Source of the DNA: Candidatus Iainarchaeum sp.
Lineage (GTDB): Archaea; Iainarchaeota; Iainarchaeia; Iainarchaeales; GCA-2688035
Assembly (NCBI GenBank): GCA_017610175.1
Contig: JAFCCO010000002.1
Coordinates: 43,319-107,318, forward strand
Length of the DNA stretch: 64,000 bases
Direction: 5' to 3'
Shown here: positions 2,400-45,084 of the stretch, in pieces
Numbering within the stretch: the first letter of the stretch is position 1
Layout: each line of letters opens with the position of its first letter
Notes under the pieces: generated by a model
Told to the model about the DNA's origin: nothing
Database searches by the model: none
Seen by the model: only the letters and a program-made list of their open reading frames with translations
Position numbers and translations under genes: made by a program

Positions 2400-3671
2400 A
2401 TGAGATTAAGTGACTCCATTAAGTTGTCAGCAAACAATATTCTGCACAGGAAGTTGAGAAGCTGGCTCACATTGCTTGGCATTATAATAGGTGTCGCGGC
2501 AGTGGTCTCAATTATTTCAATAGGGGAAGGCGCGCAAGCAAGTGTGAGTGAAAAGCTTTCAGGCTTTGGGGCAGACGTAATTACTGTCAGCCCGGGCTTC
2601 AGCAAGGCCAGTGCGTTTGCTGGATTTAAGCGGATTGGCAAAAAAATTGGCAACAGCGATGCATCCGGTGATGGGGACGAACCGACTTTGACAAGGATAG
2701 ACTCGATTGTACTTGCAGGAAACCCAAACGTTTTCCAAGTTTCCGAAACAGTTTCTGGCAGGGGCAATCTTGTATTCATTGCGGAAGAAAATTCTGTTGA
2801 CATTCAAGGGATAAATCCGCTTGGTTGGCGTGAGACTTCCAATGCCGAGCTGGCTTCAGGCAGGCATTTGACGCCAAGCGATTCAACTGTGGTTGTAATC
2901 GGGGACAGAATTGCCAACAGCATGTTTAGGCAACCAATTACTTTGGGGCGAAGGGTTGTAATTGAAGAGAAGCCGTTTACTGTGGTTGGGATACTTAAAC
3001 CATCCGGAGGCGGCGGGTTTGGCGGAAACGATTCAACCGTTTACATGTCCCTTGCAAGTGCATGGGATGTAACAGACGTTGAAAAAAACACCTTTTCTCT
3101 GATTGAAGTAAAAGTGGTTGACACCGAATTTATTGAGGAAACAGTTGAAGAGCTCACCCAAGCGTTAATGCTTTCAAGAAAGGTAACTGAAGCAAACCAA
3201 AATTTCAGCATGGTTTCTGCGCAGGCGATTCAGGAGCAGGTCAGTTCTGTGGCCGAAACACTCACCCTGTTTTTGGGGGCAATTGCAGCAGTTTCACTGC
3301 TTGTTGGCGCGGTTGGAGTGGCAAACAGCATGTTTACATCGGTTCTTGAGCAAACAAAGGAGATTGGAATACTGAAAGCCCTTGGTTCAACAAACAACGA
3401 AATTATGTGCATTTTTATGATTGAATCAGGGTTGTTTGGGCTGGCAGGGGGCACAATTGGGGTGCTTTTTGGAACCGCCATATCTATCGGCCTTTCTGAG
3501 CTGGAGATAATTTCAATTCCCATGCTTAAAGGGGGCACAACAACCATTGTAACCCCCCAGCTGGTTATTATTGCAATTGTGCTGTCCACAGTTATTGGAA
3601 TAGTTGCAGGGGCAATGCCTGCACGAGCGGCATCAAAGCTAAAGCCGGTTGAAGCCCTGCGGTATGAATGA
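2400..3671 (+). CDS. ABC transporter permease, FtsX/MacB family
   Basis: N-terminal TM helix, large periplasmic domain, and a C-terminal FtsX-like four-helix bundle (LKALGSTNNEIMCIFMIESGLFGLAGG). Confidence 0.85.
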   Translation: MRLSDSIKLSANNILHRKLRSWLTLLGIIIGVAAVVSIISIGEGAQASVSEKLSGFGADVITVSPGFSKASAFAGFKRIGKKIGNSDASGDGDEPTLTRIDSIVLAGNPNVFQVSETVSGRGNLVFIAEENSVDIQGINPLGWRETSNAELASGRHLTPSDSTVVVIGDRIANSMFRQPITLGRRVVIEEKPFTVVGILKPSGGGGFGGNDSTVYMSLASAWDVTDVEKNTFSLIEVKVVDTEFIEETVEELTQALMLSRKVTEANQNFSMVSAQAIQEQVSSVAETLTLFLGAIAAVSLLVGAVGVANSMFTSVLEQTKEIGILKALGSTNNEIMCIFMIESGLFGLAGGTIGVLFGTAISIGLSELEIISIPMLKGGTTTIVTPQLVIIAIVLSTVIGIVAGAMPARAASKLKPVEALRYE

Positions 3672-7996: not shown

Positions 7997-8600
7997 GATA
8001 AAATTCTGCGGGTTCACCGATGAGAAAGACGCCCTTCAGGCCTGCTCCCTTGGGATAGACTTTATAGGGTTTAATTTTGTTAAGGAAAGCAAGCGCTTTG
8101 TTTCCCCCGAAAAAGCAAAGGAAATCATTTCCGCACTTCCTGAGCGGGTGAAAAAGGTGGGCGTTTTTGCGGACGAGCCGGTTCAGCGCGTTAACTTCAT
8201 CAAGCGATACTGCGGCCTTGACATGCTTCAGTTCCACGGTTTTGAAACACCTGAGTACTGCTCGCAGTTTAGGAATTATATTAAGGCTTTCAGGGTAAAG
8301 GATGCCGATTCGCTTGAGGCAGTCTCAAAATATGGCACAGAGTACGTTCTTCTGGACACTTTTGTGGAGGACAAGCTTGGCGGGACAGGAAAGAGATTTA
8401 ATTGGGCCATTGCAAAAGAGGTTTTGGATAAAAAGGTTTTTTTAGCTGGTGGTCTTAATTATAATAATGTAGCGCAGGCAATTGAGGAATCAAAACCCTT
8501 TGCGGTTGATGTTGCCTCGGGAATTGAGAGCGCTGCAGGCAGAAAGGACTTGGATTTGATGAGAAAATTTGTTGAGGCGGTGAAGGGCATTGAAGCATAG
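7959..8600 (+). CDS. trpF: Phosphoribosylanthranilate isomerase
   Basis: PRAI fold (KFCGFT..., LAGGL); overlaps the trpC 3' end. Confidence 0.85.
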
Positions 8601-43143: not shown

Positions 43144-43280
43144 GCCGGCGTGGCGGAGCGGTCAAACGCGGTGGCCTTGAGGCACCCTTTCTTTGAAAGA
43201 AAGCGTGCACGGAAAGAATCCGTGGGTGCAAGTGAGCCATTTTCCGAAAGGAAGCACAGGTTCGAATCCTGTCGCCGGCG
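43144..43280 (+). tRNA. tRNA-Ser (anticodon TGA) interrupted by a roughly 53-nt intron after position 37
   Basis: Class II tRNA fold. Acceptor GCCGGCG/CGCCGGC; D-arm GCG-GAGCGGTCAAA-CGC, near-identical to the neighbouring tRNA-Ser(GGA); anticodon stem GTGGC/GCCAT; anticodon loop CU-UGA-G then an insertion at 43182-43234 whose ends pair GCACCC/GGGTGC; long variable arm TTTCCGAAAGGAAGC; T-arm ACAGG-TTCGAAT-CCTGT. The exact splice junctions and the BHB geometry are not resolved by eye. Confidence 0.65.
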
Positions 43281-43282
43281 AA

Positions 43283-43322
43283 CACCCTTTCTTTTGGGAA
43301 AAGAAAGCGTGTACGGAAAGAA
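43283..43322 (+). repeat. 40-nt imperfect direct copy of the 5' part of the tRNA-Ser intron (43183-43218), located 3 nt after the tRNA
   Basis: CACCCTTTCTTT[GA/TGGGAA]AAGAAAGCGTG[C/T]ACGGAAAGAA; 35 of 36 non-loop positions identical; the internal hairpin CTTTCTTT/AAAGAAAG is preserved in both copies; the offset is exactly 100 nt. Confidence 0.6.
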
Positions 43323-43381
43323 AAATAGTTTCAAGAGAAAAAGAAAAGATAGGTTTCAAAAAGAAAATCTTTTTGAGAACT

Positions 43382-43465
43382 GCGGAGGTGGCGGAGCGGT
43401 TAAACGCGCCAGCTTGGAAAGCTGGTTCCTTCACGGGAGCGCGAGTTCGAATCTCGTCCTCCGCG
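43382..43465 (+). tRNA. tRNA-Ser (anticodon GGA), intronless
   Basis: Acceptor GCGGAGG/CCTCCGC; anticodon stem CCAGC/GCTGG with loop UUGGAAA; long variable arm; T-loop TTCGAAT; followed by T9. Confidence 0.85.
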
Positions 43466-43541
43466 CTTTTTTTTTGTTAAAAAATCGTGTTGCATATGGT
43501 TTTTTATAGTTCTTTGAGTATACTTATTTTGGGTGAATTTA

Positions 43542-43682
43542 ATGGCTGAAACTGTTACAATTCCAAAAGAAGAGTATAAATCTCTTAAGAAAAAAGCAAG
43601 CTTTGCTGATGATGTTTTGATTCAGCTGGAAGCTAGTTTGAAGGATGTTGAAGCCGGTAGAATAAGTCCTGCTGTTCATTAA
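43542..43682 (+). CDS. Small antitoxin-like protein (46 aa; MAETVTIPKEEYKSLKK...LEASLKDVEAGR), convergent with the RelE-like gene
   Basis: Below the ORF-track size cutoff. The sequence pattern resembles short archaeal Phd/RelB-type antitoxins; the stop codon overlaps the stop of the toxin ORF on the opposite strand. Confidence 0.35.
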   Translation: MAETVTIPKEEYKSLKKKASFADDVLIQLEASLKDVEAGRISPAVH

Positions 43683-43984
43683 TTTCTTTCAACCAATTTT
43701 TTGTATTTTTCCTTATTTTGCAGAATGTGTTCAATTATCTTTTGCTGTTTTTTCTTTGAGCCGAATGCAACCAGCAAAATAGTGCTTGATTTTTTGTAAA
43801 CAAGATAATACAACCGTTTTCTGCCAAACTTTTTTTCACGAAACCACTCAAAGCGCAAAGGCTTTCCAACATCGGCACTTTTTTTCAGTTGTTCAATAAT
43901 TTTCTTTATCCAATCTTTTTCTATTTTCTCAAGTGTTTCAAATAAACGAGAAAAAGCTTCTGTTTCCAAAACAACATTTGGCAT
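43679..43984 (-). CDS. RelE/ParE-superfamily toxin
   Basis: The C-terminal motif RLYYLVYKKSSTILLVAFGSKKKQQK resembles the RelE/ParE core (R-iiY-v......i-v-rigHRkd-Y). Confidence 0.65.
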   Translation of the reverse strand: MPNVVLETEAFSRLFETLEKIEKDWIKKIIEQLKKSADVGKPLRFEWFREKKFGRKRLYYLVYKKSSTILLVAFGSKKKQQKIIEHILQNKEKYKKLVERN

Positions 43985-44027
43985 AATCGAATTAAAACAA
44001 AAGAATATTTAAGTTCATTGCAAAATT

Positions 44028-44047
44028 ATTCCCTGTAATAAGGGAAT
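44028..44047. promoter_or_regulatory. Perfect inverted repeat ATTCCCT-gtaata-AGGGAAT 44-63 nt upstream of the RelE-like start; candidate operator
   Basis: Read directly. Confidence 0.4.
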
Positions 44048-44121
44048 ATAATGCAAACAAAACAACTAGCAAAAAAATTCGAACTCACCAACTACCAACC
44101 AAAAAAATCTAATCGGCTTTC

Positions 44122-44141
44122 TCGAATCTCGCCCTCCGCGC
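44122..44141 (+). repeat. Direct repeat of the tRNA-Ser(GGA) 3' end (TCGAATCTCG[C/T]CCTCCGCGC; 19 of 20 match with 43447-43466); putative attR of a decayed integrated element
   Basis: Read directly; it delimits a roughly 0.68-kb segment that holds only the toxin and antitoxin-like genes. Confidence 0.55.
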
Positions 44142-44167
44142 TCTTCACTCTTTTTTTGGCAAAAGAA

Positions 44168-44206
44168 ATAAAAAAAAAGGGGAGCGTTTCGGTTTTCCAA
44201 AACGCC
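44168..44206 (-). terminator. Hairpin (GGCGTTTTGG/CCGAAACGC) followed by T9 on the minus strand; terminator of the SIMPL gene
   Basis: Read directly; the stem has one mismatch. Confidence 0.55.
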
Positions 44207-44217
44207 TTTTTCTTTGT

Positions 44218-45084
44218 TCACTGTATTTCGAATTGAACGCTTACCGAAGTGGTAAACTCTATGTCGCCGGGAGTTATTGGTGTTGGGGCACTTCCTGACT
44301 CCATGTTGTCCATTGTGGCGAACGACTTTGCGTAGTATGGCACTGAATAGCCAGAACTTTCGCTTGCGCCGTAAACCGGTCCGACAGAAATTCCAAGGCC
44401 TTCTGCAATGCTTTGCGCCTTTGCGCGCGCGTTTGCGGAAGCGTCTTTCAAAGCCTCTGCCCTCAGGCTTGCCTCTGTTTCCTTTGTCAGCGCAAAAGAA
44501 ATGCTGTTTACACTGTTTGCTCCCGCGGAAACCGCCGCGTCTATTACTTCCCCAACGGCGCCAAGGTCCTGCACTTTTACCCTAACCCTGTTTGTGGTCT
44601 TGTAGCCCACTGATTCAGATTTTCTGATGACTTCGTTCCACTTGAATTCTTCGCGCAGGCTGTAGGACGCGGTTTCAATGTTTTCCTTGTTAATTCCCTT
44701 GGTTTTCAGTGCGTCCATTACCTTGTTTGCAAGGGTTGCGTTGTCAGCCTGGCTTTTGCTCGCACTTTTGTCAAGTGTTTCAATGCTCAGCGTGATGTAA
44801 GCAAGTTCTGGGCTGGCTGTCTTTGTCACTGTTCCTGAAACAGAGATTAGTCTTATTTTTTTTTCGGATTCGTCTTCGGCAAAGCTTATTGCCCCACCAT
44901 CAAAGCCGCTTAAACTGGCTTCGATTGCAGTACTGCTTGATTTCTGCAAATAATTTGGAATCTGCACAACCACCTGGGCTTTTTCCTCAGGCGGAATGTT
45001 CAATGAGTAGAATCCAATTCCCACCGAAATAATCATTGCTGCGATAATAAGCGAAGCCGGCAAAATCCATTTGTTTTCAAACAT
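44218..45084 (-). CDS. SIMPL-domain protein (DUF541, YggE-like) with an N-terminal membrane anchor
   Basis: Low-complexity A/S/E-rich SIMPL-like repeats, N-terminal TM helix, SD GGAGGTG upstream. Confidence 0.7.
   Translation of the reverse strand: MFENKWILPASLIIAAMIISVGIGFYSLNIPPEEKAQVVVQIPNYLQKSSSTAIEASLSGFDGGAISFAEDESEKKIRLISVSGTVTKTASPELAYITLSIETLDKSASKSQADNATLANKVMDALKTKGINKENIETASYSLREEFKWNEVIRKSESVGYKTTNRVRVKVQDLGAVGEVIDAAVSAGANSVNSISFALTKETEASLRAEALKDASANARAKAQSIAEGLGISVGPVYGASESSGYSVPYYAKSFATMDNMESGSAPTPITPGDIEFTTSVSVQFEIQ

Follow-up and report, generated by a model that had tools for sequence, protein, structure and literature searches.

A 64,000-nt stretch of DNA from Candidatus Iainarchaeum sp. 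(assembly GCA_017610175.1, contig JAFCCO010000002.1, positions 43,319-107,318 of the forward strand; hereafter the window, numbered from its first letter) carries a 654-bp insert at the 3′ end of an intact tRNA-Ser(GGA) gene. The only open reading frames (ORFs) in this insert are two small ones, a 101-aa gene on the minus strand and a 46-aa gene on the plus strand. We consider it probable that the insert is a self-contained mobile cassette lacking an integrase, that it carries a convergent toxin-antitoxin (TA) module of the RelE family, and that it was inserted by site-specific recombination in trans and is kept by addiction. An earlier note on this DNA had read the locus as the stripped-down remnant of a larger integrative element. 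Protein relatives of the module bear the names Candidatus Diapherotrites or Iainarchaeum and Woesearchaeota, which are DPANN archaea.

As the earlier note had pointed out, the last 20 nt of the tRNA gene (TCGAATCTCGTCCTCCGCGC) recur at 44122-44141 with one mismatch. This is the only other copy in the window at up to three mismatches, and none of 100 shuffled sequences yielded a second match at that stringency. The identity runs one base further to give 21 nt (43447-43467 and 44122-44142), and a repeat search returned 24 nt at 92% identity with a spacing of 675 nt. The 676 bp that had been described as enclosed is this repeat-to-repeat spacing, one nucleotide too long, and the insert proper measures 654 bp. 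The insert has a GC content of 30.9%, compared to 45.7% for the window and 44-47% for the flanks. Each repeat copy is followed by a run of T residues; the nine after the left copy would be the new tRNA terminator and the seven after the right copy the original one. From the order of the tRNA, the T7 run and the downstream SIMPL-domain gene with its hairpin, the layout before insertion was therefore a tRNA-Ser gene converging on the SIMPL gene. The tRNA-Ser(GGA) gene at a relative's locus, L090, has a T at the position that is mismatched between the two repeat copies, from which it is probable that the right copy acquired its C by a later substitution. The A/C-rich arm that adjoins the right copy (44067-44121) aligned to the inter-cassette repeat unit of locus L010 with a local score of 37, whereas 2000 shuffles scored 16.5 ± 3.1. 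The direct repeat, the low GC content and the cassettes of the same lineage at L012 and L094, which also lie at tRNA-Ser genes between repeats that begin in the T-loop, thus support the proposal of the earlier note that foreign DNA was integrated at the tRNA 3′ end.

The module is widespread among DPANN archaea and was compared across 94 examples, comprising the toxin gene in 80 species-representative genomes, loci fetched earlier and the window. Statistics on repeats and GC content refer to the 71 unique modules among them, and counts of context to 83 distinct contexts. The partner gene was located by tblastn and ORF tracing, with gene calls on public contigs for six relatives; WIN denotes the window and L010, L012, L013, L025 and so on denote loci of relatives. 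Apart from duplicate contigs of one genome, no flanking gene was common to different loci among the 83 contexts. A flanking direct repeat scoring at least 13 was found for 15 of the 71 unique modules (21%), a rate that fell to 0.3% for mismatched flank pairs and to 0% for reversed flanks. A laxer filter added A-rich repeats at L014 (36 nt), L049 (39 nt), and L067 and L089 (21 nt). The repeats are 13-46 nt long and spaced 510-790 nt apart. Their distance is 16-138 nt from the toxin ATG, on its upstream side, and 20-188 nt past the ATG of the partner, which places them just outside both promoters. No conserved sequence was detected at the cassette ends. A transposon or miniature inverted-repeat transposable element was considered and rejected, as terminal inverted repeats were at background in 14 of 15 repeat-flanked cassettes and the repeat length is not fixed.

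At tRNA sites, the repeat spans from inside the 7-nt T-loop to the 3′ end of the tRNA. Such sites comprise tRNA-Ser at WIN, L012 and L094, tRNA-Glu at L025 and tRNA-like cores at L040 and L010; the repeats of L012 and L094 are 16-18 nt long. Of the 83 contexts, 9 have a tRNA gene no more than 250 bp from the cassette, where 1.7 would be expected (P ~6e-5). The toxins of WIN, L012 and L094 are the most alike (74-78% identity) and all sit at tRNA-Ser ends, so the insertion target tracks the cassette lineage. Elsewhere, the repeats derive from protein-coding genes. They comprise the final 4-11 codons together with the stop codon in genes for a RIO kinase (L089), NrdR (L046), a THUMP methyltransferase (L067) and a SLOG protein (L049), and at L036 to the start codon and five codons of a PP-loop ATPase gene. 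At each protein-gene site one repeat copy leaves the gene intact.

The window holds a single cassette, and tandem arrays were found in the relatives L010, L013, L040, L051, L086 and L094. At L025, two different modules stand in tandem at tRNA-Glu(CTC) with copies of the tRNA 3′ fragment between them. The module distal to the tRNA has a frameshifted toxin gene and the most decayed fragment, an order that matches what would be expected of serial insertion at the tRNA. In that older module (L025 5001-5250) the partner ORF is intact, a pattern of toxin-first decay. L094 has four copies of a tRNA-Ser core (at 876, 1839 and 2935, and in the tRNA at 3491), which bound a Glycos_transf_2-like ORF (a weak Pfam match), a HEPN-MNT pair and the convergent RelE-like pair. 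At L010, four cores bound a glyoxalase gene (by Pfam), the convergent RelE-like pair, and a lipoprotein gene with ORFs that we read as HicA and HicB. L040 has four cores and one cassette with a Fic motif, and L051, L082 and L086 have three cores each. The longest series is at L013 (1975-8552), where at least eight copies of a ~90-nt repeat unit, each starting with a tRNA-Glu-like 3′ end, lead up to a tRNA-like sequence at 8466-8552. These units separate the convergent pair and cassettes read as classic RelE plus antitoxin, Doc, HicAB, PIN-like and methyltransferase-like. The repeat units begin with the tRNA end and are A/C-rich in the tRNA sense, and a conserved arm adjoins the core in WIN, L010 and L013. 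No arm motif common to all loci was detected, since nhmmer profiles built from WIN plus L010 and from L013 matched only their own loci. The possibility that the units are attC sites was rejected: folding of the units of L010, L040 and the window was no better than that of shuffles (z from -1.9 to +0.6), and RNAalifold returned 0 conserved pairs. A separate locus without the pair, the SIMPL locus of a relative (L091 5056-6170), has three copies of a 16-nt core, TGGGCGGACTGAGGCA, spaced 486 and 613 nt apart. They lie among small genes that include one with a Pfam match to MazE, and the locus looks like another small cassette array.

The absence of an integrase from the insert, claimed in the earlier note, was confirmed, and the claim could be extended to the surroundings. 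A tyrosine-recombinase motif scan of ORFs of at least 120 aa in 89 loci and the 64-kb window returned only three weak matches, none of them an integrase, and Pfam annotation of the contigs of six relatives revealed no recombinase within 3-6 kb. Similarly, no recombinase or transposase was among the 25 most frequent of the 102 Pfam families in 92 flanking ORFs from 24 loci linked to repeats, arrays or tRNAs. LAGLIDADG_3 domains, which are homing-endonuclease-like, occur in 3 of these 92 ORFs (including L013:797-1645). The earlier note had also proposed that related genomes be compared for the empty site and for larger intact elements. The comparison produced minimal cassettes at other loci, and neither an empty site nor a larger intact element was seen. 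The nearest homologues of the flanking SIMPL protein have 67% identity, at loci without synteny. In L090, the tRNA-Ser(GGA) is uninterrupted and free of a cassette, with an aldolase gene directly after it, in a rearranged context. Scans of a metagenome collection for exact empty-site junctions of the window and of L094 gave no match. For the window, the predicted empty-site junction reads GAGTTCGAATCTCG[T/C]CCTCCGCGCTCTTCACTC, and an excised circle would carry the junction ...AATCGGCTTTC-TCGAATCTCG[T/C]CCTCCGCGC-TTTTTTTTTGTTAAAAAATCG.

In the account that we prefer, the 654-bp cassette would have integrated at the segment of tRNA-Ser(GGA) between the T-loop and the 3′ end, regenerating the tRNA end and displacing a 21-nt copy of it. 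Most likely, a site-specific recombinase acted in trans and crossed over within the T-loop, in the manner of cis-mobilisable elements (CIMEs); addiction would then have retained the cassette. The case for site-specific recombination consists of the T-loop crossover, the accretion in tandem, the arm shared between loci and the correspondence of cassette lineage and target. Toxicity, neutralisation, coupling at the RNA level and the identity and type of the recombinase are what we infer in this account. Several observations weigh against it. Neither a partner recombinase nor an autonomous element with an integrase and these att sites was found in the 89 loci or in virus and plasmid collections, a search that did not cover whole genomes. 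No empty site was recovered. Roughly three quarters of the modules have no detectable flanking repeat, and metagenome-assembled contigs are the source of most of the data. The low GC content is in part a consequence of Lys-rich coding, and the GC content of the module follows that of the host (r = 0.73); at 67 of 71 loci the module has a lower GC content than its flanks, by 6.5 points on average, and the gap of 13 points in the window is among the largest. The toxin also fell short of the family models, with 16.9 bits against a cut-off of 23 for Pfam ParE_toxin and 14.5 against 62.85 for TIGR02683. Finally, the cassettes at protein-gene ends each have a different repeat, which a single sequence-specific recombinase would not explain.

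The last point is the main one that our preferred account does not explain, and it counts in favour of the alternative that survives best, although we regard it as unlikely, namely movement without a dedicated recombinase. A circle bearing a piece of a gene end could integrate through short homology (Campbell-type), or long staggered cuts could duplicate 14-46 nt. The non-tRNA repeats are unique to their sites, variable in length (13-46 nt) and made of the ends of conserved housekeeping genes, which keeps a short-homology or novel duplication mechanism viable. Terminal inverted repeats, conserved termini and a nearby integrase are all lacking. In addition, of four single mismatches between copies of coding repeats, three are synonymous, as would fit an orthologous donor gene, a weak signal at P ~0.05. 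Against this mechanism, six independent tRNA sites (WIN, L012, L094, L025, L040 and L010) have the inner repeat boundary inside the 7-nt T-loop, which is typical of crossover by a tyrosine recombinase, and a conserved arm adjoins the core in WIN, L010 and L013. Homology-driven integration also cannot account for the first arrival at a new site.

We find the reading of the earlier note, in which a larger integrase-bearing element such as a virus or plasmid entered tRNA-Ser and decayed to an addiction module between attL and attR, improbable. A repeat of a tRNA end around DNA of foreign composition is the classic att scar, addiction modules resist deletion, and the frameshifted toxin and decayed repeat of the older module at L025 demonstrate that decay happens. 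However, the same minimal two-gene unit was present in 83 contexts, with tight repeats ~20-190 nt from both start codons arising independently in at least 15 loci, and arrays hold other cassettes that are equally minimal. Partial integrase or other element genes were seen in none of ~80 contexts. A carrier virus or plasmid was likewise rejected, as the toxin had no homologue in IMG/VR, PLSDB or INPHARED. Repeated, precise decay to this minimal state is implausible; the cassette itself appears to be the moving unit.

The assignment of the 101-aa protein to the RelE/ParE fold, suggested in the earlier note, was borne out by structure prediction. An AlphaFold2 model from a 35-sequence alignment had a mean predicted local distance difference test score (pLDDT) of 89.3 and a predicted template modelling score of 0.78. 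Its best Foldseek matches in the PDB all belong to the RelE/ParE superfamily (RelE, PfiT, HigB2, YoeB and ParE), with E values down to 5.6e-5 and template modelling (TM) scores of 0.6-0.79. RelE of T. thermophilus, E. coli and M. tuberculosis were the leading matches, and archaeal RelE of P. horikoshii and M. jannaschii were also present. Compared to RelE, the model has two additional C-terminal helices. Residues invariant in the 35 sequences include R49, K51, K56, R57, Y59 and K77, which in the model occupy strands of the sheet and the following helix. Such conserved basic and aromatic residues are consistent with, though no proof of, the active site of an mRNA interferase, and the protein may act as a ribosome-dependent mRNA endonuclease. 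A search of PDB sequences with the toxin profile gave no RelE match and only a spurious stretch of CasX (E = 0.002), and the PADLOC and PHROGs libraries had nothing significant for the pair. In an exhaustive profile search of 1.84 billion representative proteins, the family numbered 235 sequences at E ≤ 1e-10, rising to 423 at E ≤ 1e-3, where each sequence stands for a cluster at 50% identity. The toxin is placed in a discrete family with the predicted RelE/ParE fold that lies outside the curated families.

The 46-aa partner is predicted to form a single long helix over residues 9-37 (pLDDT 90). Its consensus is M-x-E-T-V-T-I-P-K-x-E-Y-x-x-L-K-K-K-A-x-x-A-D-D-x-L-x-Q-L-x-x-S-L-x-D-x-x-x-G-R. 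Nonsynonymous divergence (dN) was 0.15-0.25, whereas synonymous divergence (dS) was at or near saturation (1.2-1.3 where calculable, otherwise not computable), values that indicate a protein-coding gene under purifying selection. The partner had no significant match in Pfam, PDB, PADLOC or PHROG, and ribbon-helix-helix, helix-turn-helix, AbrB and Phd domains were sought in its 45-46 residues and none was detected. As an antitoxin it would lack a DNA-binding domain and would bind the toxin to neutralise it. Its N-terminal motif TVTIPKEEYxxLKKK (encoded at 43542-43600) matched Pfam Phage_T7_Gp5_9, a RecBCD inhibitor, below threshold in 25 of 37 members (best E = 0.003), and the corresponding PHROG also below threshold; this similarity to T7 gp5.9 is probably compositional.

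The tail-to-tail arrangement with overlapping stop codons that the earlier note described was confirmed, with 4 nt (43679-43682) shared. The note had doubted, given this geometry, that the small ORF is the cognate antitoxin. That doubt is not sustained: a convergent partner lies directly downstream of the toxin gene on the opposite strand in 86 of the 94 modules, the partner is under purifying selection, and toxin and partner diverge together (Mantel r = 0.67, compared to a maximum of 0.15 in 500 permutations). The overlap from stop to stop is exactly 4 nt in 58 of the 86 pairs and 6-17 nt in most others. In the six relatives with gene calls, a 44-46-aa gene converges on the 101-aa gene with the 4-nt overlap in unrelated neighbourhoods. 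No pair had the co-directional gene order of a type II operon, as all those detected were convergent. By these comparisons, the small ORF is the cognate partner and convergence the defining architecture of the family.

Each gene appears to have its own archaeal promoter, with short or absent leaders. In the relatives, the partner gene is preceded by an A-rich tract and a box of the TTTAAATA type that starts ~30 nt before the ATG, and the family profile has the same order of A-rich tract and TATA-like box for both genes, with the box most commonly starting 28-31 nt before the ATG. In most modules, the coding strand of each gene has oligo-A, which is oligo-T for the opposing transcript, within ~100 nt of its 3′ end, and an overlap of tens of nucleotides between the 3′ ends of the two mRNAs is probable. 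Since the stop codons overlap, the mRNA 3′ ends must be complementary, which makes it probable that antisense pairing or transcriptional interference, and not autoregulation of an operon, links the expression of the two genes. Selection of Lys codons as oligo-T terminators for the opposing transcript was rejected, as the conserved KKK motif has no AAA bias. The inverted repeat that the earlier note had placed upstream of the toxin is present, with the core ATTCCCT-N6-AGGGAAT at 44028-44047. It is not a family feature and was rejected as an operator, because perfect inverted repeats of at least 7 bp occur upstream of the toxin in 9 of 77 relatives, compared to 7.4 ± 2.3 after shuffling; that of the window is probably incidental.

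It seems doubtful that the pair is not a TA system at all, in which case it would be another two-component module (e.g. for defence or regulation) or the small ORF would be unrelated. No family model scored over threshold, the convergent layout is unlike that of type II operons, and the partner has no recognisable antitoxin or DNA-binding domain. Antitoxins without a DNA-binding domain are nevertheless known (PaaA2), and the RelE fold with its conserved basic sheet face, the strict pairing and the co-divergence all argue for a TA module. Moreover, the neighbouring cassettes include HEPN-MNT (by Pfam) and ORFs read as HicAB-, Doc- and classic RelE-like.

That 44122-44142 is the relic of a decayed tandem tRNA duplicate with ordinary chromosomal genes in between is hardly credible: tRNA genes do cluster here, with an intron-containing tRNA 100 nt upstream, but the sequence 5′ of the fragment does not resemble a tRNA, the DNA in between has a foreign composition, its gene pair recurs in unrelated contexts and the adjoining sequence matches the inter-cassette repeat of another genome.

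More speculatively, the mobile cassette of the window may represent a previously undescribed gene-cassette system of DPANN archaea, a generalisation that we offer tentatively. Its units would be 0.5-2 kb in length, carry their own promoters and no integrase, and consist mostly of TA modules. They would insert precisely where tRNA and housekeeping genes end, with a duplication of 13-46 nt that keeps the target intact, and would accumulate in tandem arrays. The system would be functionally analogous to integron cassette arrays but would recombine at sites taken from gene ends, by a recombinase or mechanism not yet recognised, and its most widespread cargo would be a new class of obligatorily convergent protein-protein TA modules coupled through overlapping 3′ ends.

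Table. Features of the tRNA-Ser(GGA) locus and its insert, in window coordinates.
Feature	Position	Strand	Remarks
tRNA-Ser(GGA), integration target, intact	43382-43466	+	ARAGORN; Rfam RF00005, 61 bits
Left direct-repeat copy, 21 nt, attL-like core	43447-43467	+	From second base of T-loop to 1-2 nt beyond tRNA end
T9 run after left repeat copy	43467-43475	+	Sequence
Inserted cassette, 654 bp, 30.9% GC	43468-44121		Composition
TATA-like box TTTTTTATAG upstream of small ORF	43500-43509	+	Inferred promoter
46-aa partner, candidate antitoxin	43542-43682	+	Predicted single long helix, residues 9-37
101-aa RelE-fold protein, candidate toxin	43679-43984	-	Stop overlaps partner stop by 4 nt
TATA-like box CTTAAATATT (minus strand), 20-29 nt upstream of toxin ATG	44004-44013	-	Inferred promoter; position-conserved
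Inverted repeat TATTCCCT-N6-AGGGAATA, 8-nt arms, upstream of toxin promoter	44027-44048		
A/C-rich arm adjoining right repeat, with internal imperfect direct repeat	44067-44121	+	Homologous to L010 inter-cassette repeat unit
Right direct-repeat copy, attR-like displaced tRNA 3′ fragment	44122-44142	+	20/21 identical; repeat search
T7 run after right repeat copy, presumed original tRNA terminator	44151-44157	+	Sequence
Terminator-like hairpin of SIMPL gene	44183-44206		
SIMPL-domain gene downstream of insert	44218-45084	-	

Some features of the surrounding DNA were recorded as well. The intron-containing tRNA (43144-43280) scored 46.7 bits in Rfam and was missed by ARAGORN under default settings; its presence upstream identifies the genome as archaeal. 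It is a class II tRNA with an intron of ~53-56 nt and the anticodon loop CUUGAGG, probably tRNA-Ser(UGA), which ARAGORN -i calls Thr(TGT). The first ~37 nt of the intron, including the hairpin CTTTCTT/AAGAAAG, are repeated 3′ of the tRNA at 43284-43325 with the hairpin kept. The tRNA-Ser(GGA) gene of L090 (7537-7766, minus strand) has an intron of ~144 nt in which a hairpin motif, similar to that in the window tRNA intron, occurs twice. These repeats hint at a repeated, possibly mobile, intron-borne element in the lineage. An Rfam match to the ylbH leader at 44096-44215 (minus strand), which covers the right repeat and the SIMPL hairpin, was judged to be due to chance (24 bits against a gathering threshold of 50).

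Recent work still calls the integration of chromosomal TA modules unclear. In the present case, a unit with recognisable insertion scars carries nothing but the TA pair and was met in arrays and at dozens of independent sites, which renders the entry of TA modules into genomes directly testable. TA finders that require co-directional genes would miss the pair. The conserved convergent layout with overlapping stop codons suggests that a protein-protein system is regulated through transcriptional interference or antisense pairing. Selfish cassettes that insert at gene ends without disrupting the genes bear on the plasticity of DPANN genomes, which are small and depend on a host.

Literature searches returned no description of the pair or of such arrays in DPANN, and the module was therefore compared with the closest known systems. 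The archaeal RelBE pairs (P. horikoshii aRelE-aRelB, 1WMI; M. jannaschii, 3BPQ) and bacterial RelBE share its toxin fold (TM 0.60-0.79) and its pairing of a small basic protein with a small partner gene. The toxin identity is only 15-22%, however, with Pfam and NCBIfam scores below threshold, and the partner studied here is 45 aa long, is predicted as a single helix and converges on the toxin gene from its own promoter, whereas the RelBE partner lies upstream in an operon. PaaA2-ParE2 of E. coli O157 (5CW7), encoded by paaR-paaA-parE, combines a RelE/ParE toxin with a very small helical antitoxin that has no DNA-binding domain, and ParE2 is among the fold matches of our toxin. PaaA2 is co-transcribed with the toxin and the regulator PaaR2, in contrast to the converging genes described here, which have no third gene.

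Convergent genes with 3′-overlapping transcripts are found in the type I loci txpA/RatA, bsrG/SR4 and yonT/SR6 of B. subtilis (PMC5848175). In both cases the convergence and the 3′ overlap would produce complementary transcript ends, but the type I loci pair a non-coding RNA antitoxin with a small membrane peptide toxin, whereas both genes of the present module encode conserved proteins under purifying selection. CIMEs are integrase-less, att-flanked and mobilised by a related integrative element. The cassettes resemble them in their att-like repeats at tRNA 3′ ends, the lack of recombination genes and the tandem accretion seen in the arrays of L094, L025 and L013. Unlike the cassettes, CIMEs have an autonomous relative within their own genome or a sister genome, and no such element was found here; the units described here, at 0.5-2 kb, are also much smaller, and some lie at protein-gene ends with site-specific repeats. 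Integron cassettes and clusters of attC sites lacking integron-integrases (CALINs) include archaeal integrons (Ghaly et al., 2022, PMC9668308). They likewise form arrays of small, mostly single-function cassettes that are rich in TA modules, and TA cassettes have their own promoters. The repeats of the present arrays differ in being derived from tRNA or gene ends, in being A/C-rich and in having no attC-like hairpin; no IntI was found, and the end of the target gene is duplicated. Because each of these comparators lacks at least one defining feature, the module is set apart from RelBE, PaaA2-ParE2, type I loci, CIMEs and integrons alike, and constitutes a new variant and not a member of any of them.

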